From contig CAYNFE010000004.1 of the NCBI GenBank assembly GCA_964396475.1, positions 6,519 through 70,518 of the forward strand: a stretch of DNA of 64,000 bases. Direction: 5' to 3'. A program made the translations under genes and the position numbers. Under the pieces are notes generated by a model. It made no database searches, was not told where the DNA came from, and was given only the letters and a program-made list of their open reading frames with translations. How positions within the stretch are numbered: the first letter of the stretch is position 1; each line of letters begins with the position of its first letter. Shown in pieces: positions 6,034-62,313 of this stretch. This DNA comes from Candidatus Woesearchaeota archaeon. Its GTDB lineage: Archaea; Nanobdellota; Nanobdellia; Pacearchaeales; UBA284.

Positions 6034-6927
6034 TTATTCAAATATAAGAGAGGCATAACCAACAGCATTTGTATAATCTTTTGATATATCTCCAGAAGTA
6101 TAATACTTAAGCAAAGAAGCTTTTTTTGCACCAATTTTTTTACAAAATTCTATTGCAGTAACTATAACTGCAGATCCACATATAGTTGTTTTTGTAGCTT
6201 CATTGTAAAATCCTTGGCTATCTAATTTAATAATATGATTAATTGCTTTTCTATCAAGTTCTTTAAGTCTTGTCTTTGCCTCGCTCGCTGGAAAAGGAAT
6301 AAATCCATAGCTCTGTCCATAGTGTGTAAAATCAGAACTAGCAATAACACAAACATTTCTATTCATCTCTTTTACAGTCTCTGCTATTTTTCTTCCAAGT
6401 GCTAAAAGTTTGTCATATTCTAGAGTTGAGATAATAATTGGCACTATCTTAAATTCTTTCTTTACAATCTTAGAAACAAATTGCAAAAAAGGTAACTGTA
6501 CTTCTAGACTATGTTCATACTGATGAGCTAATTCATCTTCCTGTAATCCTAGATGAGATGTCTGTTCCATAATTTTGGCTCCAAGCTCAGTATCATTTTT
6601 TACGATACCTAAAGGACTGGAAAAATCTTCAAAAGTCAAAGAAAAATTAGCTTTTCCTTGTCCAGTATGATTTGGCCCAAGAAGAATGAAAGTATCTGGA
6701 AAACTTTTTTTATTTAGTTCTGCTAATTCTTTATAAGCCCAAGCTGCACATTGTCCACTATAGATATAACCAGCATGTGGAACAATTAAACCATAAATCT
6801 TTTTTTCCTTGAGTGGAATTCTTGGCATTCCTGGTCCTAGATAGTGTTTGAATGATTTTTTTATTTCCTCATCCAACTCTGTCTTATCTGCAGAATAAAA
6901 TTGTCCAGTTACAATTGGTTTTCTCAT
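6034..6927 (-). CDS. MEMO1-family protein (AmmeMemoRadiSam system protein B)
   Basis: MRKPIVTGQFY...VPHAGYIYSG...SSDFTHYG motifs typical of the Memo/AmmeMemoRadiSam B family; 297 aa. Confidence 0.85.
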   Translation of the reverse strand: MRKPIVTGQFYSADKTELDEEIKKSFKHYLGPGMPRIPLKEKKIYGLIVPHAGYIYSGQCAAWAYKELAELNKKSFPDTFILLGPNHTGQGKANFSLTFEDFSSPLGIVKNDTELGAKIMEQTSHLGLQEDELAHQYEHSLEVQLPFLQFVSKIVKKEFKIVPIIISTLEYDKLLALGRKIAETVKEMNRNVCVIASSDFTHYGQSYGFIPFPASEAKTRLKELDRKAINHIIKLDSQGFYNEATKTTICGSAVIVTAIEFCKKIGAKKASLLKYYTSGDISKDYTNAVGYASLIFE

Positions 6928-22943: not shown

Positions 22944-24749
22944 ATGGGTGAGAATAAAACTATTCACAAGTTTAAAATTGAGGAAGAAGAACTCCGTATA
23001 CTCCTAAGTTCAAATAATCATCCATTTCCAGAACTAAAAAAATTTCTTGAAAATCCTCATTTATTTTTAAAAAGTAAAAAAGGGAAAATTTTACTAACAC
23101 AAATTAAAAAAAAGTGCAAAAACCTTGGGGAAATCCCAAAACTTAATCAGAAACTATATGATACATATGAATCAGGGGGTTTAAGGGCTCCATATGAAAT
23201 TCCATATGATGCTCGTAGAGAAAACCTATCTATTGCTGTTTTTTATTATTTATTTGGCTATAATAAATATTTGAAAATTATAGAAGAATATCTTAATGCA
23301 ATTTGTGAGGAACAAAGTTGGATTCCACCTTGGCACGAAGGCAGAATACTTGAAATTTATTCAGCAGATACAGCATTTATATTAGCTGAAATTTTATTTC
23401 TATTACAAGATAGATTGCACAAAAATATTATCAAAAAAGTTAAGGATTCTATTAATGAAAAAGTATTCAACCCATTTTTGTCCAATCCCTTAAAAAGTAA
23501 ATATGATAATGACGTAGATAATTGGACAGGTGTAACTAACAGCGAGATTGGATGTGCATTTTTATTAATTGAAGAAGATGTTAATAGAAAATCAAAAGCT
23601 ATTCACAAAACTATTGAAGGATTAAACAATTTTATTAAGAATTCATTCAATGAAGATGGAAGTACAACAGAAGGGATTCTTTATTGGAATTATGGAATCA
23701 GTATGTTTTTGATTTTTTCTGAAATGTTGAGAGCTTCAACTAACAATAAAATAGATCTATTTAAGATAAAAAAAATTAAGAATATTGCTTCTTATCCTTC
23801 AAAGATACAGCTTAGTCTTAAAGTTTTTGCAACATTTTCAGATTCTTCAGAAACTGGAACAATTTTCCATCCAGGAATTATTCAAAGAATGTCCGAAAGA
23901 TCCCATGAGAAATCTTTGTTAAACTTAATAACTGAACCATTTATTATTGATTGGTTTGGAATTACGACTCTTCTAAGGTATATTTTATGGTGGAATGGTA
24001 AATCTATGAAAGCTGTTAAGATTTCTGATTCATACTTACCTGATGCCGGAATAGTTCGCCTGACTAATAATATAAAGAAGGGGGAATCAATTAACTTGAT
24101 TGTCAAAGCAGGAGATAATGGAGAGAGACATAACCATAACGACGTCGGAAGTTTTATTATTAATATTTCTGGTGAAAATTTTATTACCGACCCTGGAAGA
24201 GGACTATACAGTAAGGGATATCATGATTACCATAATTCAGAAAGATACAAAAATATTTTTACAAATTCTTATGGGCATAGTGTTCCAAAAATTGATAATA
24301 ACCTTCAATCTGCAGGAAGAAAATTTTCTGGTAAAATATTGTCCGTTAAAAAAGAAAAGAATCTAAAATCCGTAAATCTTAAAATGTCGGAGAGCTATAA
24401 TATTCCTAAGTTGAAAAATCTCATTCGTAATATATCAATTATTAATAATAACCTAATATTAAAGGATAAATATTTATTTTCAAACAATTCTCCGAAAATT
24501 GAAGAGGCATTCATTACTTGGCTTGATGTTATTGTAAGGGGGAATACAGCAATCATCTCTGGTAAGAATAACAAACTTATACTTACAATTAAAGAACCAA
24601 AAAACACCCGATTTCATCTAGAAAAATTGAAAAAAGAAAGTAGAGAAAATAAAAAATCTAGAATATTAAAGAGAATAAGTTTTATAATCCCAAAAACTAA
24701 CAGCAACAAAGTTAATATAAAAATAGATATGAATCTAAAGATTGAATAG
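22944..24749 (+). CDS. Heparinase II/III-like (polysaccharide lyase-like) protein
   Basis: KAGDNGERHNHNDVGSFIINISGENFITDPGRGLYSKGY matches the HxHxDxxSF...G...D.G..Y core of the heparinase II/III family. 601 aa, with no obvious signal peptide. Confidence 0.6.
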   Translation: MGENKTIHKFKIEEEELRILLSSNNHPFPELKKFLENPHLFLKSKKGKILLTQIKKKCKNLGEIPKLNQKLYDTYESGGLRAPYEIPYDARRENLSIAVFYYLFGYNKYLKIIEEYLNAICEEQSWIPPWHEGRILEIYSADTAFILAEILFLLQDRLHKNIIKKVKDSINEKVFNPFLSNPLKSKYDNDVDNWTGVTNSEIGCAFLLIEEDVNRKSKAIHKTIEGLNNFIKNSFNEDGSTTEGILYWNYGISMFLIFSEMLRASTNNKIDLFKIKKIKNIASYPSKIQLSLKVFATFSDSSETGTIFHPGIIQRMSERSHEKSLLNLITEPFIIDWFGITTLLRYILWWNGKSMKAVKISDSYLPDAGIVRLTNNIKKGESINLIVKAGDNGERHNHNDVGSFIINISGENFITDPGRGLYSKGYHDYHNSERYKNIFTNSYGHSVPKIDNNLQSAGRKFSGKILSVKKEKNLKSVNLKMSESYNIPKLKNLIRNISIINNNLILKDKYLFSNNSPKIEEAFITWLDVIVRGNTAIISGKNNKLILTIKEPKNTRFHLEKLKKESRENKKSRILKRISFIIPKTNSNKVNIKIDMNLKIE

Positions 24750-29811: not shown

Positions 29812-31425
29812 ATGCCTATCAAAAATAAACTTAAAATTGAATTAGCTGGTTTCTGGCCAAAGATAGAGATAAAAGACAAAAGATTAAGAAAGAAAATTGG
29901 CAAGGATTTCTTAGGGCCAGATTATATAGTTAGTTTTCTCCAGAAAGCTGTTTACAAATCAGTGCCTTTAATAAAAGGATTAGAAGAAGAAATACTGAAA
30001 GAAGAAAATATAAGAGAGACAGCATTCAATAAATTTTCAAGTTCTATGCTAAGAGGTCACTCTCTTGACGGCACTGCAGGAATTGCTTTAAAATTACATG
30101 GAAGCAAACTTCTTGATTCTGCTCTTACAGGAATACCATTTTCAAGAAGTTTTGTGACTAGTGGAAGAAGAGCGAAAATACATAAAGAAAACATAATAAT
30201 TCCAGACTCTATTGATAAAAAATATGATCTTAGAAAAGAATATGTAGAGACATCAGAAACAGCTATAGAAATTTATGATAAAATAATTGATAAAATTGGA
30301 AGCAAACAATTAGCTTCCAAAGTTGTTCCTTATAATAATCCATGTGATCTCTATATAAGGTTGCCTTTAAGTTCTATCATGACTCTTGCTCTTGAATTAG
30401 AACAGCAAAAACAAACTAATCAGATATGGATGCCAAGAGAAGTGGAAGAATTAATATCAAGATTAGAAAATGATATACTGCCTGATATAGATATGAAAAT
30501 AATGTATGATACAAGAAAAGCTGCTCTTCGTGATACTTATCTTCATTGGTATGTATTCAAAGGTAAAGATGATAATTTTGCAACAGAAATGGCAAAATTA
30601 TTGGGAAATCCTCTTGAACCAACAATAATACCAACTTCAATAAACATACAACCAACTAAGGGCTTGAGAAAGAAATTAAAATATCTAGAAGAAAAAATAA
30701 GTTTCACACACACTATTTTAAATCCTAAAGAATTATCAAAAGCTTCCAGAGAAAACTTGTTGTTGTTAAGAGATATAGTTGATTCTTATAACGATTCTAT
30801 CTCATTAAAAACAGTAAGTAGTTTATCATGGCGCGTTTGGAGTGAGCAAAAAAGACATTCAACTTTAAGACAGTGCGTAGAGTCAATATATAGAGCAAGT
30901 GACAGAGCATATGAAATCATAGAATCATCTAGAAATAAAAAAGATCTTTTCAAGAGATCAGAAAAAGCTTTTGTTATTCCACCAGAAATAAAAAAAGATA
31001 AAGAGCTTCTCAGAGATTATGTATGGATATCTTCAAAACAACACCTATTAAGAAAAGAACTTCTTGATGCTAGTATAGAAGAAAGAGATGCTATCTATAT
31101 TGTTCCAAGAAATACTAGATTAAGGACAGTAGAGACGTATGATTTGATAAACCTAATTGATTTGGAACTTCCATTAAGAACTTGCACAACTTGTGAGCCT
31201 GAAAGACGAGCAACTGCAGAAAAGAAAGCAGAAATTATAAAAGACACCTTAAGTGGTATTATCCCAGAGCTCAATTATTTAATAGGCCCAAAATGCATTC
31301 TTGGTTATTGCACAGAGCCAAAATTCTGCGGAAAAATCCTAGAATACAATCCAGATTACAGTGTATCTTTGCATAATCATATAAGAGAAAATCTGATAAA
31401 GAAGGCTTCAGAAAAAATAAGTTAA
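29812..31425 (+). CDS. Hypothetical protein; possible divergent tandem ThyX-like (flavin-dependent thymidylate synthase fold) protein
   Basis: Residues 345-360 (EQKRHSTLRQCVESIY, nt 30844-30891) resemble the ThyX motif RHRxxSxxxxSxRY. IVPRNTRLRTVETYDLINLIDLELPLR resembles the ThyX helix block. The N-terminal half carries a degenerate copy (RGHSLDGTAGIALKLHG...SGRR). Confidence 0.35.
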   Translation: MPIKNKLKIELAGFWPKIEIKDKRLRKKIGKDFLGPDYIVSFLQKAVYKSVPLIKGLEEEILKEENIRETAFNKFSSSMLRGHSLDGTAGIALKLHGSKLLDSALTGIPFSRSFVTSGRRAKIHKENIIIPDSIDKKYDLRKEYVETSETAIEIYDKIIDKIGSKQLASKVVPYNNPCDLYIRLPLSSIMTLALELEQQKQTNQIWMPREVEELISRLENDILPDIDMKIMYDTRKAALRDTYLHWYVFKGKDDNFATEMAKLLGNPLEPTIIPTSINIQPTKGLRKKLKYLEEKISFTHTILNPKELSKASRENLLLLRDIVDSYNDSISLKTVSSLSWRVWSEQKRHSTLRQCVESIYRASDRAYEIIESSRNKKDLFKRSEKAFVIPPEIKKDKELLRDYVWISSKQHLLRKELLDASIEERDAIYIVPRNTRLRTVETYDLINLIDLELPLRTCTTCEPERRATAEKKAEIIKDTLSGIIPELNYLIGPKCILGYCTEPKFCGKILEYNPDYSVSLHNHIRENLIKKASEKIS

Positions 31426-57579: not shown

Positions 57580-57861
57580 ATGCTTTCAGACATACCAAAA
57601 AATCTTGCAAAAGTTTCAAAAGATCAGATTGATGCAGAAATTCTTAGAGTAGGAATGATAGCAGAATTAGATGCAGTCAGTCTTTATGAACAGTTAGCAG
57701 CAATGACAGATAAAGAAGACATTAAAAAAGTTTTAATAGATATTGCAAAAGAAGAGAAGACACATATGGGAGAATTTCAAACTCTCTTATTAAAATATGA
57801 CAAAGAACAAGTAAAGGAACTAGAAGCTGGAAAAAAAGAAGTCGAAGAACTGATAGGATGA
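57580..57861 (+). CDS. Small ferritin-like protein (EncFtn/rubrerythrin-like half-bundle)
   Basis: AELDAVSLYEQLA...DIAKEEKTHMGEF carries the ExxA..Y ... EEKxH di-iron ligand pattern of encapsulated-ferritin-like proteins. AGGAGG lies upstream. Confidence 0.55.
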   Translation: MLSDIPKNLAKVSKDQIDAEILRVGMIAELDAVSLYEQLAAMTDKEDIKKVLIDIAKEEKTHMGEFQTLLLKYDKEQVKELEAGKKEVEELIG

Positions 57862-58682
57862 AAAATATAGCCTTGGCAATAATAGCTACTATAATTTTAA
57901 TCTTATTAATTTTATTTTTTATTAGACAGCCAAAAATAGAAGAAGAAAAAATGATAAATATAACTAACACAACCAACATAACTTTAATTACTATTTATGA
58001 TAATTATCAATATGACCCAGAACTCAAAACTGGATGGGGTTTTGGATGTGTTGTTAAAACTAAGGACAAAACCTTGCTTTTTGACACTGGTTCTGATTCT
58101 GAAACTTTACTTGATAATATGAAAAAAATGAAAATCAAGGCAGAAGAGATTGACATAATTGTCTTGTCACACATACATGGAGATCATGTTGGTGGCTTAT
58201 CTGGCTTTCTTGAAAAAAATTCTAATGTCACTGTTTATGTTCCAGCTAGTTTTCCTAAATCATTCAAAGATGAAATCAAACAAGCAGGAGCAAAAATTAT
58301 AGAAGTAGCCAAGGAAAAAGAAATAGAAAAAGGAATTTTTTCAACAGGTGAGCTAGGAACATGGATAAAAGAACAGTCTCTAGTTATTAACACAGACAAA
58401 GGTATTGTTGTTATAACTGGTTGCGCTCATCCAGGTGTTGTTAATATAATAAAAAAAGCAAAAGAGATGACACAAAAAGAAGTTTATCTTGTAATTGGTG
58501 GTTTTCATTTAAGTGGAGCTAACGATTCTGAACTTAAAAACATAATAAATTCATTCAGAGAATTTAATATAAAGAAAGTTGCTCCTTGCCATTGTTCAGG
58601 AGATAGATGCAGAGAACTTTTCAAAGAAGATTATGGTAATGATTTCATAGCAAATGGGGTAGGAAAAATAATTGAAATTTAA
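57858..58682 (+). CDS. MBL-fold metallo-hydrolase (COG1237-like) with N-terminal TM anchor
   Basis: IYDNY...GWGFGCVV...LLFDTG...VLSHIHGDHVGGL...GCAHPG; ATGA overlap with the upstream gene. Confidence 0.8.
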   Translation: MKNIALAIIATIILILLILFFIRQPKIEEEKMINITNTTNITLITIYDNYQYDPELKTGWGFGCVVKTKDKTLLFDTGSDSETLLDNMKKMKIKAEEIDIIVLSHIHGDHVGGLSGFLEKNSNVTVYVPASFPKSFKDEIKQAGAKIIEVAKEKEIEKGIFSTGELGTWIKEQSLVINTDKGIVVITGCAHPGVVNIIKKAKEMTQKEVYLVIGGFHLSGANDSELKNIINSFREFNIKKVAPCHCSGDRCRELFKEDYGNDFIANGVGKIIEI

Positions 58683-58694
58683 GATTAAGATAAA

Positions 58695-60182
58695 ATGAGT
58701 AATAAAGGCTTTAATAATGAAAAATATGTAGAAAAACAAACAAAAGCTATTCTTGAAAGAGTAAAAAAATTTGATAAGCTCTATTTAGAATTTGGTGGTA
58801 AATTATATGGTGATTTTCATGCTTCTAGAGTCTTGCCTGGCTACCATCCAGATACGAAAATAGAAATTCTTAAACAGCTCAAAGATGTGGAAATAATTTT
58901 TTGTATCTCAGCTAAAGATATACAAAAAGGAAAAATAAGGGGGGATTTTGGCTTAACATATGATAATGCTGCCTTAAAAATGATTAATGACCTAAGAAAA
59001 TTCAATCTTAATGTTTCTTCTGTTGTCATAAATAGATTTTCAGATGAGCCTTTAGCATTAAAATTCAAAAAATTCTTAGATAAACTAAAAATAAAATCTT
59101 ATTTGCAATCAGAAATTCAAGGTTATCCTGCTGATATTAAAAAAATTTTATCTTATGATGGTTATGGAAAGAATCCTTACATAGAAACAAAAAAAAGAAT
59201 AGTAGTAATAACAGGGGTTGGCCCAGGTTCAGGAAAAATGTCCACATGTTTGTCACAATTGTATTTTGATAGCAAGAAAGGGATAAAATCAGGATTTGCA
59301 AAATTTGAAACATTTCCTATTTGGAACCTTCCTCTAGAACATCCAGTTAATATAGCATATGAGGCAGCCACTGCAGATATAGGAGATTTTAACATGGTTG
59401 ATCCTTTTCATTTAGAAGCATATGAAGTAAAAGCCATAAATTATAATCGTGATATAGAAAACTTCAATATTATGAAAAATATTTTAGAAAAAATTTCTTT
59501 TTGCCCCTATAAATCCCCTACTGACATGACTGTTAGTATGACAAAAGAAGGAATTATGGAAGATAGTATTGTAAAAGAAGCATCAAAACAAGAAATAATA
59601 AGAAGATATTTTAGATATAAAAAAGAGCTTGCAAAAGGATTAGGAGAAGAGGAAACTATGAAAAGAATAGAAAAATTAATGTTAAAACTAAACTTAAAGC
59701 CAGAGGATAGAAAAGTTGTTATTTATGCAAGAGAAGCTGCAGAAGAAGCAAGAAAAAAAGATAGTAAATTTTTCTGTGGTTCTGCTATTAAACTAGCAGA
59801 TGGAGAAATAATAAAAGGAAAAAGCTCAAAACTCTTTCATTCAGAAAGTTCAGTTATACTTAATGCTATCAAAGAACTTGCTAAAATTCCTGATCCAATC
59901 AAACTTTTACCAGAAAACATAATACAAAATGCAAATGAATTGAAAAAAGAGCTAAAAACAGAGGGGAGTTTAAATGTTGAGGAAATGATTATTGCATTAT
60001 CAATAAGTGCTTCGACAAATCCTTCTGCTGCTTTTTGTATAAAAAAATTAAAAGAACTTAAAGGATGTGAAATGCATTCTACTCATTTTCCAAGTCAAGG
60101 TGATGAAAGTGGATTAAGGAAATTAGGAATTAACATAACAACAGATTGTTTACCTATGGGAAATATTTATTTTAGAATCTAA
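58695..60182 (+). CDS. DUF1846 (UPF0371) family protein
   Basis: GFNNEKYVEKQTKAILERV...LYLEFGGKLYGDFHASRVLPGY matches my memory of the conserved DUF1846 N-terminus; 495 aa. Confidence 0.75.
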   Translation: MSNKGFNNEKYVEKQTKAILERVKKFDKLYLEFGGKLYGDFHASRVLPGYHPDTKIEILKQLKDVEIIFCISAKDIQKGKIRGDFGLTYDNAALKMINDLRKFNLNVSSVVINRFSDEPLALKFKKFLDKLKIKSYLQSEIQGYPADIKKILSYDGYGKNPYIETKKRIVVITGVGPGSGKMSTCLSQLYFDSKKGIKSGFAKFETFPIWNLPLEHPVNIAYEAATADIGDFNMVDPFHLEAYEVKAINYNRDIENFNIMKNILEKISFCPYKSPTDMTVSMTKEGIMEDSIVKEASKQEIIRRYFRYKKELAKGLGEEETMKRIEKLMLKLNLKPEDRKVVIYAREAAEEARKKDSKFFCGSAIKLADGEIIKGKSSKLFHSESSVILNAIKELAKIPDPIKLLPENIIQNANELKKELKTEGSLNVEEMIIALSISASTNPSAAFCIKKLKELKGCEMHSTHFPSQGDESGLRKLGINITTDCLPMGNIYFRI

Positions 60183-60190
60183 AATTTAAA

Positions 60191-60928
60191 ATGTTATCAA
60201 CAATTTATATTGCTGTAATCTTATTAGCTTTTCTTTCAGGTATCACAACCTTAATTGGTCTTTATCTAGCTTTACGTTTCAAAAAAAATGTTAAAGCTAT
60301 TGTTCTCGGTCTTGGTTTCTCAGCAGGCATTATGTTATTAATTTCTTTTTTTGAATTGCTACCAAATGCAATAAAAGCTACAAATATCTTAAACACTTTG
60401 TTAGCAGTTGGAGCTGGCTTTTTACTCATCTTTGCATTACATTTTATTATCCCCCATACTCATCTTGTGAAAGAAAAAGGAAAAATAAAAGCATTAATGT
60501 CTATGGCATTGTTAGTTGCTTTTGGTCTTATCTTACATGATTTTCCAGAAGGTTTTGCAATGGCCAACTCTTATATCTATGCTCCTTCTCTTGGTATTTT
60601 AGTTGCTCTTGCAATAGCTTTACATAATATTCCAGAAGAATATGCTATGGCTGTACCTTTAGTCTTAACCAAAAAAAGAAGTTTCCTTATAACTCTTGCA
60701 ATACTTTCAGCTTTAGCAGAGCCAGTAGGTGCTATAATCGGACTTGCCGCAGTATCTATAGCACCAACCCTTAATCCTTTATTCATGGCTTTTGCAGCCG
60801 GCGCAATGATCTTTGTTTCAATCCATGAATTAATCCCATTCGCAAGAAGATATAAGAAGCCTTATTTTCTCTCTCTTGGAATAATTTTAAGCATATTAAT
60901 CTATCTCATACTAACTTTTTTCATATAA
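60191..60928 (+). CDS. ZIP family metal transporter (second paralogue)
   Basis: HDFPEGFAMA and HNIPEEYAMA helices. Confidence 0.85.
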   Translation: MLSTIYIAVILLAFLSGITTLIGLYLALRFKKNVKAIVLGLGFSAGIMLLISFFELLPNAIKATNILNTLLAVGAGFLLIFALHFIIPHTHLVKEKGKIKALMSMALLVAFGLILHDFPEGFAMANSYIYAPSLGILVALAIALHNIPEEYAMAVPLVLTKKRSFLITLAILSALAEPVGAIIGLAAVSIAPTLNPLFMAFAAGAMIFVSIHELIPFARRYKKPYFLSLGIILSILIYLILTFFI

Positions 60929-61027
60929 AAAATTAAAAAACTTAAATAGGATGTTTCTAAAACTTGAAATATTTTATAGATAATACAGTATAAAAAACAT
61001 TTTAAGTTTTAATTTCATAATTTATTT

Positions 61028-62098
61028 ATGGCTTGGGGTAAATTTATTGAAAAATACTGGTATCTTATATTTCCCTTATTTTTTGGTGGAATTAATCTTT
61101 ATGCTTGGATGCAACTAGGCAATGCTGAACAAAGGCTAGATAGAACTCAACAAGAAGTTAGAGAATTCATAACTGATCAAAATATAAAGAAACTTGATGA
61201 GTTATTAATAAAATCTAGAGAAGAAAGAAAAAAATGGGTTGACTTGGAAAAATATCTAAATAATCATCCTGAAATTATCTATGATTATAAAATAAATAAA
61301 ATCATAAAAAAATACAATCTAAACAAAACAGAAGAAAAAAGATTTAATAATTTGATTGGGTTTTTGGAAGAGAATTTTAATTATACAACTATTGACTCTC
61401 TTTTCACTAGTAAAGAATTTGAATTAGATACTACTTTAGTTAGAAGAATTGAAAAAGGAAAAGAGTGGTATAAGGAATGGTATAAAGAACATAAAGGTGA
61501 AAACCCTTATCAAAAAGTTTTTACAGAAAAATCTATAAAAGAGTGTTTAGATTTCTTAGATAAAAATGATTCCTTCTTTACTGATATCATAAAAAAATTC
61601 AATTTAACAAACCCAAAAACAAAAGAGTTATTAGTTAGTCTGATTAGATTAGAGACTCACTTAGGAAAAAATACTGGAAAAGATAAGGCTTTTAATGTCT
61701 TGGTTTCACACTATGTTTTTAATCCAAAAAGGAAAACAAGGAATTTTGCTCTAAAACAACTCAACTATCTGATTAAACTAATGAATAAGATAGATCCTTT
61801 TTCTGCTAGTTCAATAATGGGTGCTATAGGCTGGACTCAAGGAATACCAAAAGCATTGAATGATCATATAGTAGATTTTGATAAGGACGGAAAAATAAAT
61901 CAATTTGCTCTTCCAGATGCAGTTGGATTTACACTAAATTATTTTGGTGTAAGAGAAGGAGATAAAGGAACAAAAGACATAGCTAGAGTATTAAAATGGT
62001 ATAATCCACATGATAAATGGTATGTTCCTACAATCCTAGAGCTCGCTGATTCATTATATAGTTATACAGATATAGAAACAATTTCAGAGAATAATTAA
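61028..62098 (+). CDS. Membrane-anchored lytic murein transglycosylase-like protein (MltB/SLT_2 family)
   Basis: LIRLETHLGKNTG (compare GVETRWG with the catalytic Glu) and GAIGWTQGIPKALNDHIVDFDKDGKINQFALPDAVGFTLNYF (compare GAMGYGQFMPSSY..YAVDFSGDGHINLW...DAIGSVANYF). N-terminal TM helix. Confidence 0.75.
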   Translation: MAWGKFIEKYWYLIFPLFFGGINLYAWMQLGNAEQRLDRTQQEVREFITDQNIKKLDELLIKSREERKKWVDLEKYLNNHPEIIYDYKINKIIKKYNLNKTEEKRFNNLIGFLEENFNYTTIDSLFTSKEFELDTTLVRRIEKGKEWYKEWYKEHKGENPYQKVFTEKSIKECLDFLDKNDSFFTDIIKKFNLTNPKTKELLVSLIRLETHLGKNTGKDKAFNVLVSHYVFNPKRKTRNFALKQLNYLIKLMNKIDPFSASSIMGAIGWTQGIPKALNDHIVDFDKDGKINQFALPDAVGFTLNYFGVREGDKGTKDIARVLKWYNPHDKWYVPTILELADSLYSYTDIETISENN

Positions 62099-62130
62099 AA
62101 CTTTCTAAGCCTATTTTTTTATCTCTCTTC

Positions 62131-62313
62131 TTATTCTGTTATCCCTAGAATCAAGAAAACAATTCCTATCAAAACAAGGATGACAACCACTCCCCCTTTT
62201 AAAAATTCTATGGTTGCTATCCCCCAACTATAAAACACTGGAACATTCAATACAACTATTATAGGCACTAGTATCAAAACAATTCCTATCAAAATATTAA
62301 TTAGTTTGCTCAT
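62131..62313 (-). CDS. Small two-TM membrane protein (60 aa)
   Basis: Two clear hydrophobic helices; ORF only. Confidence 0.45.
   Translation of the reverse strand: MSKLINILIGIVLILVPIIVVLNVPVFYSWGIATIEFLKGGVVVILVLIGIVFLILGITE

Follow-up and report, generated by a model that had tools for sequence, protein, structure and literature searches.

A small, membrane-anchored GH103-type lytic transglycosylase without beta domain predicted from a Pacearchaeales genome

Lytic transglycosylase (LT) domains were noted in Pacearchaeota and Woesearchaeota by Rinke 2013 and Castelle 2015 (both as cited in PMC8204110), and Castelle et al. 2021 (PMC8204110) afterwards presented LTs as a family of large proteins, extracellular and typical of the lineage. 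The LTs of glycoside hydrolase family 23 (GH23) from the DPANN archaea (Diapherotrites, Parvarchaeota, Aenigmarchaeota, Nanoarchaeota as well as Nanohaloarchaeota) have been interpreted as predatory tools (Vigneron et al. 2022, PMC9723730), and homologues of peptidoglycan hydrolases have been reported in about 5% of archaeal genomes, being prominent in Nanoarchaeota, and for some of them the killing of bacteria was demonstrated in experiments (Strock et al. 2025, PMC12352652). The transfer of a GH25 lysozyme to Aciduliprofundum has also been described (Metcalf et al. 2014, as cited in PMC12352652). The gene analyzed here belongs to a different family, SLT_2 (PF13406; GH103 in CAZy), and lies at positions 61028-62098 of the forward strand of a 64,000-nucleotide stretch of DNA (the window; positions 6,519 to 70,518 of contig CAYNFE010000004.1, assembly GCA_964396475.1) from a Candidatus Woesearchaeota archaeon of the order Pacearchaeales, phylum Nanobdellota. 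It shares with the DPANN LTs of PMC8204110 (fam00969) and PMC9723730 the archaeal lineages, the enzyme class and the proposed role at the archaeal surface, but going by their descriptions those proteins reach about 3,000 amino acids and are of the GH23 (family-1 SLT) type, whereas the present one has 356 amino acids and a single GH103 domain. With the hydrolases of Strock et al. 2025 and the GH25 of Aciduliprofundum it has in common that a bacterial-type wall-degrading enzyme was acquired by archaea without murein, although the enzymes tested by Strock et al. 2025 are of other hydrolase families, secreted and modular.

The GH103 type was found in 0 of 101 archaeal genomes in a CAZy survey of 2012, and no discussion of it was found in the cited DPANN literature, in which the reported enzymes are GH23; SLT is not mentioned in the main text of PMC12352652, where no search for GH103 was made. 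NCBI automatic annotation already names one such protein, P0012, an open reading frame (ORF) of locus L002 in the same GTDB family, as 'lytic murein transglycosylase [Candidatus Pacearchaeota archaeon]'. An earlier note on this DNA, made from its letters alone, had presented the gene as an MltB-like murein LT in an archaeon, a surprise that was overstated given this family-mate and the murein LTs of Pacearchaeota and Woesearchaeota already published (PMC8204110, PMC9723730, PMC12352652). The general concept of wall-cutting LTs in DPANN is thus known, and what is new is a small, anchored GH103 enzyme devoid of the beta domain. The reading favored here, to which a probability of about 0.7 is assigned, is that the gene encodes a working anchored SLT_2/GH103 transglycosylase that cuts bacterial peptidoglycan at the archaeal surface; domain identity, conserved catalytic residues, fold, native location, purifying selection and gene content are shown by the analysis, and topology, activity, substrate and purpose are inferred.

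Pfam SLT_2 matches residues 115-307 of the protein (E 8.5e-20; 71.6 bits against a cut-off of 24.3; profile positions 16-197 of 292), the same result being obtained for the gene in a whole-genome profile scan, and a phmmer search against all PDB sequences retrieved family-3 LTs only, including SltB1 of P. aeruginosa (1e-11) and Slt35 of E. coli (6e-10). In the phmmer alignment the query LIRLETHLG stands opposite IIGVETRWG of Slt35, which places Glu209 on the catalytic Glu162, and the block GAIGWTQGIP...VDFDKDGKIN...DAVG...NYF is aligned to GAMGYGQFMP...VDFSGDGHIN...DAIG...NYF. Counting along this alignment, Ser262 corresponds to Ser216, Gln271 to Gln225 and Asp283, Asp285 and Asp287 to Asp237, Ser239 and Asp241, while Tyr325-Asn326 match Tyr338-Asn339 (RYNHS) by profile alignment against PDB. 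In an alignment of 31 sequences (A1) E209, G213, S262, G265, A266, Q271 and Y325 are invariant; in one of 88 sequences (A4) this holds for S262, G265, A266, G268, Q271 and P274, with E209 present in at least 90% of the sequences. Y325 and N326 are both invariant in A4, and over the two alignments Y325 is invariant and N326 nearly so; the invariant or near-invariant positions are in all E209, G213, S262, G265, A266, Q271, P274, D283, D287, G288, D297, Y325, N326 and Y332. These results confirm that the protein is a family-3 (SLT_2/CAZy GH103) LT with a conserved catalytic Glu. The SLT_2 membership, the catalytic-Glu motif and the conserved GAxGxxQ...VDFDxDGxxN...DAxG...NYF block, which the earlier note had proposed from alignment by eye, therefore all stand. 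The parts of the gene are as follows.

61028-62098, + strand: SLT_2 lytic transglycosylase gene, 356 amino acids, predicted to be membrane-anchored (ATG-started ORF, translation, Pfam, and the ratio of nonsynonymous to synonymous substitution rates, dN/dS)
61055-61126, + strand: residues 10-33, YWYLIFPLFFGGINLYAWMQLGNA, hydrophobic, predicted signal anchor or transmembrane helix (sequence)
61127-61357, + strand: residues 34-110, predicted charged helical stalk, limited to the genus-level clade (model and alignment)
61358-62062, + strand: residues 111-345, predicted catalytic SLT_2 region with alpha and core domains and without beta domain (model, Foldseek, profile alignment)
61652-61654, + strand: codon of Glu209, predicted catalytic acid/base, equivalent to Slt35 Glu162 (alignment)
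61811-61849, + strand: residues 262-274, SIMGAIGWTQGIP, putative active-site Ser/Gln motif (Slt35 Ser216, Gln225; alignment)
61874-61909, + strand: residues 283-294, DFDKDGKINQFA, EF-hand-like loop (Slt35 Asp237-Asp248; alignment)
62000-62005, + strand: Tyr325-Asn326 (Slt35 Tyr338-Asn339), start of the last core-domain helix (profile alignment)

The EF-hand-like loop keeps D283, D285 and D287 (positions 1, 3 and 5) and K289, and has Ala294 at position 12 in place of Slt35 Asp248. The calcium ligands of Slt35 are Asp237, Ser239, Asp241, the backbone oxygen of His243 and Asp248. Position 7 of the loop would use its backbone for binding. The loop is deleted in the orthologue from another genome of the genus (G003), as it is in a number of homologues that belong to other orders, and therefore calcium binding appears uncertain and apparently dispensable.

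An AlphaFold (AF2) model built from 88 sequences reached a predicted local distance difference test (pLDDT) score of 89.7 and a predicted template modelling (pTM) score of 0.78, with low confidence in the stalk only and pLDDT mostly 91-98 over the catalytic region (111-345). Foldseek against PDB returned eight matches with E <= 0.001, all of them family-3 LTs (SltB1, Slt35, SltB2 and SltB3) at probability 1.0, the next match having an E of 0.5. The query thus has the catalytic domain family and fold of Slt35/MltB and SltB1 (1qus, 1d0k, 1ltm, 4anr, 5o8x), the catalytic Glu within an E-T motif, the equivalents of Ser216, Gln225 and Tyr338-Asn339 and an EF-hand-like DxDxDG loop in the same place, but it differs from them in having Ala and not Asp at EF-hand position 12 and in lacking a beta domain of 62-66 residues. 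In profile alignments against PDB, the insert between HGW and RYNHS, 62 residues long in Slt35 and 66 in SltB1, is lacking in the query subfamily, and this insert, which we take to be the beta domain of the known Slt35 structure, was present in alignment A1 as a segment of about 65 residues in two classical MltB-like sequences (P0024 and P0026) and in no other; the alpha and core parts are present in the query. Identity as an MltB orthologue was rejected, the scores being 61.3 bits for TIGR02282 (cut-off 281.4) and 51.1 bits for the equivalog PRK10760 (cut-off 449). The label 'MltB-like' hence holds for the domain family and fails as orthology, the protein being of a shortened subtype. Its setting is also unlike that of MltB, which is carried on an outer-membrane lipid anchor, whereas the query would sit on an N-terminal transmembrane helix and a helical stalk, in a host without murein.

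An exhaustive sequence search of 1.84 billion representatives gave 696 matches at E <= 1e-3 and three at E <= 1e-30; the best ones are mostly 240-300 amino acids long and can be aligned through the C-terminal YN(H/P)xxxYV helix. The short subfamily has a broadly bacterial distribution. Among pattern matches in GTDB species genomes, 567 of 600 were confirmed as relatives, and the best 80 loci came from metagenome-assembled genomes labelled Thermodesulfobacteriota/'Deltaproteobacteria', SAR324, Bdellovibrionota, Ignavibacteriota/Kapabacteria/Chlorobiota, Nitrospinota, Binatia and a few Patescibacteria, in a sample drawn with a narrower bacterial alignment (A3) and biased by it towards one branch of the family. 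As judged from sequence, the query belongs to this short, beta-less SLT_2 subfamily, widespread in bacteria, for which no characterised member was found. It shows the layout and motifs of the bacterial proteins (about 240-300 amino acids, with a signal peptide) at 25-38% identity; unlike the query, these have cleavable signal peptides and reside in cells with their own murein, and the archaeal genus-level clade adds the predicted transmembrane anchor and a stalk of about 75 residues.

The loss of the beta domain, together with the degenerate EF-hand loop that is deleted in the G003 orthologue, would fit a repurposed fold, acting on or binding some glycan other than murein, for instance those on the archaeon's own surface, the envelope of an archaeal host or a chitin-like polymer. 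Fast divergence points the same way, since the LT is only 35-41% identical within the genus compared with 76-87% for its neighbours EncFtn and L15e, and the known hosts of DPANN are, as a general statement, archaea (PMC8204110). All the catalytic and substrate-contacting positions tested are nevertheless shared with bona fide LTs of murein, bacteria that do have a wall widely carry the same beta-less form, and M23 peptidases, which are murein-specific partners, are encoded in the same genome, making repurposing quite unlikely.

The host assembly comprises 609,805 bp (0.61 Mb) in eight contigs and is 89.6% complete. Archaeal genes surround the LT gene in the window (ribosomal protein L15e, 575 bp 3' of it; MCM; aIF5B; an AMP-phosphorylase-like gene), and these, with the small genome, identify the host as an archaeon, as had been supposed; it is of the Pacearchaeota type and probably a symbiont. 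G+C is uniform along the window and amounts to 0.29 in the bin holding the LT gene. Of four genomes sampled from the genus, three carry the gene, namely the host genome (G000), G001 and G003; in the last two the orthologue has the same neighbourhood (EncFtn ... LT, a 60-amino-acid membrane protein on the reverse strand, ..., L15e), an AsnC neighbour matching also in G001, and a metagenomic contig (L123) that carries the closest relative, P0002 (73% identity), has the order EncFtn-ZIP-LT. Codon comparison with the P0002 gene gave dN 0.148, dS 1.07 and dN/dS 0.14, the neighbouring EncFtn having 0.09, and the LT gene is therefore kept under purifying selection. That the gene is not the archaeon's own, being bacterial contamination, a mis-assembly or the decaying relic of a recent transfer, might be suspected from the rarity of SLT_2 in the lineage (12 of 401 genomes of the order and 10 of 400 in a sample of the phylum) and from its absence in G002. 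Against this, the gene occupies the same position between archaeal genes in the independent assemblies G000, G001, G003 and contig L123, its frame is intact, and its nearest relatives are archaeal; the whole idea is very improbable, and synteny and selection led to the rejection of contamination in particular. This small DPANN genome has the gene as a native one.

The N-terminal segment Y10-A33 comprises 24 residues, uncharged and hydrophobic as read from the sequence, which agrees with the transmembrane helix proposed in the earlier note, and the G001 and G003 orthologues have such a segment as well. It is modelled inside a long helix (residues 2-47). No lipobox Cys for outer-membrane anchoring was found, residues 1-40 being without Cys, and the segment is predicted to be a signal anchor or transmembrane helix. 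Other archaeal homologues have signal-peptide-like N-termini. A pilin-type (class III) signal was considered for the SLT_2 protein and rejected, as its orthologues have no conserved [KR]G motif at the N-terminus. The stalk is modelled as helices 34-47, 50-65, 69-79 and 81-95, with pLDDT of 61-64 over residues 41-70, and can be aligned only to P0002, P0004 and P0005 within the 31 sequences of A1.

The genome contains a second LT, a family-1 SLT (PF01464) of 360 amino acids (G000:C3:54691-55770, + strand; loci L105/L106) with the motifs IIQESS, GLMQIMPQTA and AAYNAG, whose N-terminus (MQNKRG followed by a hydrophobic stretch) resembles an archaeal prepilin (class III) signal, a KKG/KRG start being also present in homologues from L008 and L010. 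There are two Peptidase_M23 proteins (loci L110 and L111), one of 492 amino acids with a transmembrane segment in the middle of the protein (G000:C2:81939-83414, + strand) and one of 2,593 amino acids with an N-terminal hydrophobic, signal-like segment (G000:C3, - strand, around 29991-30284). The latter calls to mind the giant surface proteins published for DPANN. Mur_ligase_M, FtsW/RodA (SEDS), Amidase_2, AnmK and GH3/NagZ were not found in the genome, at its 89.6% completeness. Apparently, then, murein and pseudomurein are not made by this cell and anhydromuropeptides are not recycled, although four domains that cut murein are encoded, and the murein-less host assumed in the earlier note is borne out to that extent by the missing Mur ligase and FtsW/RodA. 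With no genes for peptidoglycan or pseudomurein synthesis the substrate would belong to another cell, and with neither Mur ligase nor FtsW/RodA bacterial peptidoglycan is the most plausible one. LTs require a free C6 hydroxyl on N-acetylmuramic acid (MurNAc), and pseudomurein is built with beta-1,3 links and N-acetyltalosaminuronic acid, which carries a carboxylate at C6; pseudomurein is an unlikely substrate because this sugar has no C6 hydroxyl for the anhydro ring.

The peptidoglycan could also be cut for nutrition, from free wall debris (necromass), with uptake of the muropeptides. Metagenomes commonly show degradation of necromass by enzymes of GH23, GH102 and GH103 (PMC10437873), and an organism of very limited metabolism must scavenge, as the AMP-phosphorylase-like gene of the window exemplifies. 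This is unlikely, for AnmK and GH3 NagZ, which serve for anhydromuropeptides, and Amidase_2 are the very genes that the genome was found to lack, and a tethered enzyme would be badly placed for dispersed insoluble debris.

In the reading favored here, that of an anchored enzyme working on bacterial walls, the N-terminal helix and the helical stalk of about 75 residues would keep the enzyme attached outside, to the membrane of the archaeon. Glu209 would serve as general acid/base, with Ser262, Gln271, Tyr325 and Asn326 lining the active site as in Slt35, and the beta-1,4 bond between MurNAc and N-acetylglucosamine (GlcNAc) of bacterial murein would be cleaved, leaving a 1,6-anhydroMurNAc end. 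Because the enzyme is tethered, its action would be limited to walls in contact with the archaeon, where the family-1 SLT and the two M23 endopeptidases, which cut peptide cross-links, probably help to thin or open the bacterial wall at the contact site. The purpose could be attachment or anchoring, feeding, the breach of a host wall or the killing of competitors.

Several observations weigh against this proposal. In Slt35 the substrate groove is lined in part by the beta domain, which is absent here, position 12 of the EF-hand loop has no acidic residue, so that activity or specificity may differ from those of the studied enzymes, and the PDB matches include no solved structure of the short subfamily. 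Charges on the two sides of the anchor show little bias, the topology being deduced mainly from homologues. The completeness of 89.6% means that the absences of wall genes are not proven. In G002, a genome of the same genus in a single contig of 711 kb, the gene is missing, and it is consequently not essential to the lifestyle. Finally, this lineage is not known to have a partner among bacteria.

SLT_2 is rare in the phylum, in about 2.5-3% of the sampled genomes. The 12 positive genomes among the 401 sampled from the host's order cluster in the family to which the host belongs (G000 aside, 5 of 23), and in the phylum-wide sample (10 of 400 high-quality genomes) the profile matches end at positions 164-222 of 292, most of them near 204, the ORFs that were extracted being of the short type. 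Support for the genus-level clade is good, at 96-99 in the Shimodaira-Hasegawa-like approximate likelihood-ratio test (SH-aLRT), in two trees, one of 158 rows and one of 120; the backbone is weak and many of the nearest rows are unassigned metagenome proteins. Several of the nearest neighbours lie on archaeal-looking contigs, with genes for aEF-1beta, PAN and Roadblock/Arf-like proteins and with neighbour genes 37-59% identical to those of G000; P0038 and P0023 are archaeal by gene context and P0057 is identical to an archaeal locus. Another close neighbour, P0007, is on a clearly bacterial contig of low G+C. The short SLT_2 gene of a clearly bacterial metagenome contig with 27% G+C (ERZ6863929 c_000000445135; L011, 6001-6786), which carries genes for purine synthesis, RecG and GGDEF, is nested in an otherwise archaeal clade, and this means either closeness to the donor lineage or a transfer from archaeon to bacterium.

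In a labelled tree of 63 rows, a set with a support of 96 consists of 11 archaeal rows and the one bacterium, P0007, and by the approximately unbiased (AU) test on these 63 rows (LG+G4) one clade of all archaeal sequences is not rejected (p 0.317). These data are compatible with a single old acquisition, and later loss and spread among archaea, without demonstrating it. The phylogeny that had been suggested for identifying the donor lineage allows no donor phylum to be named, given the weak backbone. A fuller scenario, offered tentatively and at somewhat less than even odds, is that DPANN archaea of the Nanoarchaeota type acquired one beta-less SLT_2 copy long ago and kept it patchily, and that this genus mounted its copy on a transmembrane anchor and stalk as a contact-dependent tool that, with the SLT and the two M23 proteins, opens the wall of a bacterial host. 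If true, these Pacearchaeota would live on bacteria and not on archaea. A tethered murein-cutting enzyme in a minimal genome would be indirect evidence of a bacterial partner or victim, and is a hint that this genus interacts with bacteria. The published DPANN repertoire of GH23 giants would be extended by a small GH103-type enzyme, and attention is drawn to a widespread, uncharacterised subfamily of beta-less SLT_2 proteins. The small size of the protein, with a predicted soluble ectodomain of residues ~34-356, should make it more tractable for assays than proteins of 2,000-3,000 amino acids.

Two weak features flanking the gene were read directly in the sequence.

60989-60997, + strand: possible archaeal TATA box, TATAAAAAA, about 31 nucleotides 5' of the ATG
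62114-62120, + strand: run of seven T, 16 nucleotides past the stop, possible archaeal terminator that would also serve the convergent gene

The region of the TATA-like element has 29% G+C, and an A/T-rich match of this kind is expected by chance.

Across the genus, the genes lying between EncFtn and L15e form a variable slot. In G002 a zinc-ribbon-like protein adjoins the ZIP gene instead of the LT, from which this variability follows; the protein has 407 amino acids with an N-terminal CxxC...C zinc-ribbon-like motif (L107, 9354-10577). On contig L123 the LT is followed by a reverse-strand gene of about 400 amino acids. In the window, genes for an MBL hydrolase, a DUF1846 protein and ZIP are located at 57858-60928, between EncFtn and the LT, as an insertion relative to G001 and G003, in which EncFtn and the LT are separated by 64 bp and about 430 bp, respectively. 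The G003 orthologue (P0005; L007, 1060-2220), although it has lost the EF-hand-like loop, keeps the catalytic Glu, Ser, Gln and YN motifs, and both the G001 and the G003 orthologues have a C-terminal extension of about 50 residues, ending in LDS(L/I), that is absent from the window protein. Convergent with the LT gene, at 62131-62313 (- strand), there is a protein of 60 amino acids with two hydrophobic segments and no Pfam match; each of the four genomes of the genus, even the one that lacks the LT, has it at this position, with 68-75% identity. Further upstream in the window (22944-24749, + strand), a protein of 601 amino acids ends in a C-terminal domain like that of Heparinase II/III (E 5e-10) and is possibly another polysaccharide-cleaving surface enzyme of this minimal genome.

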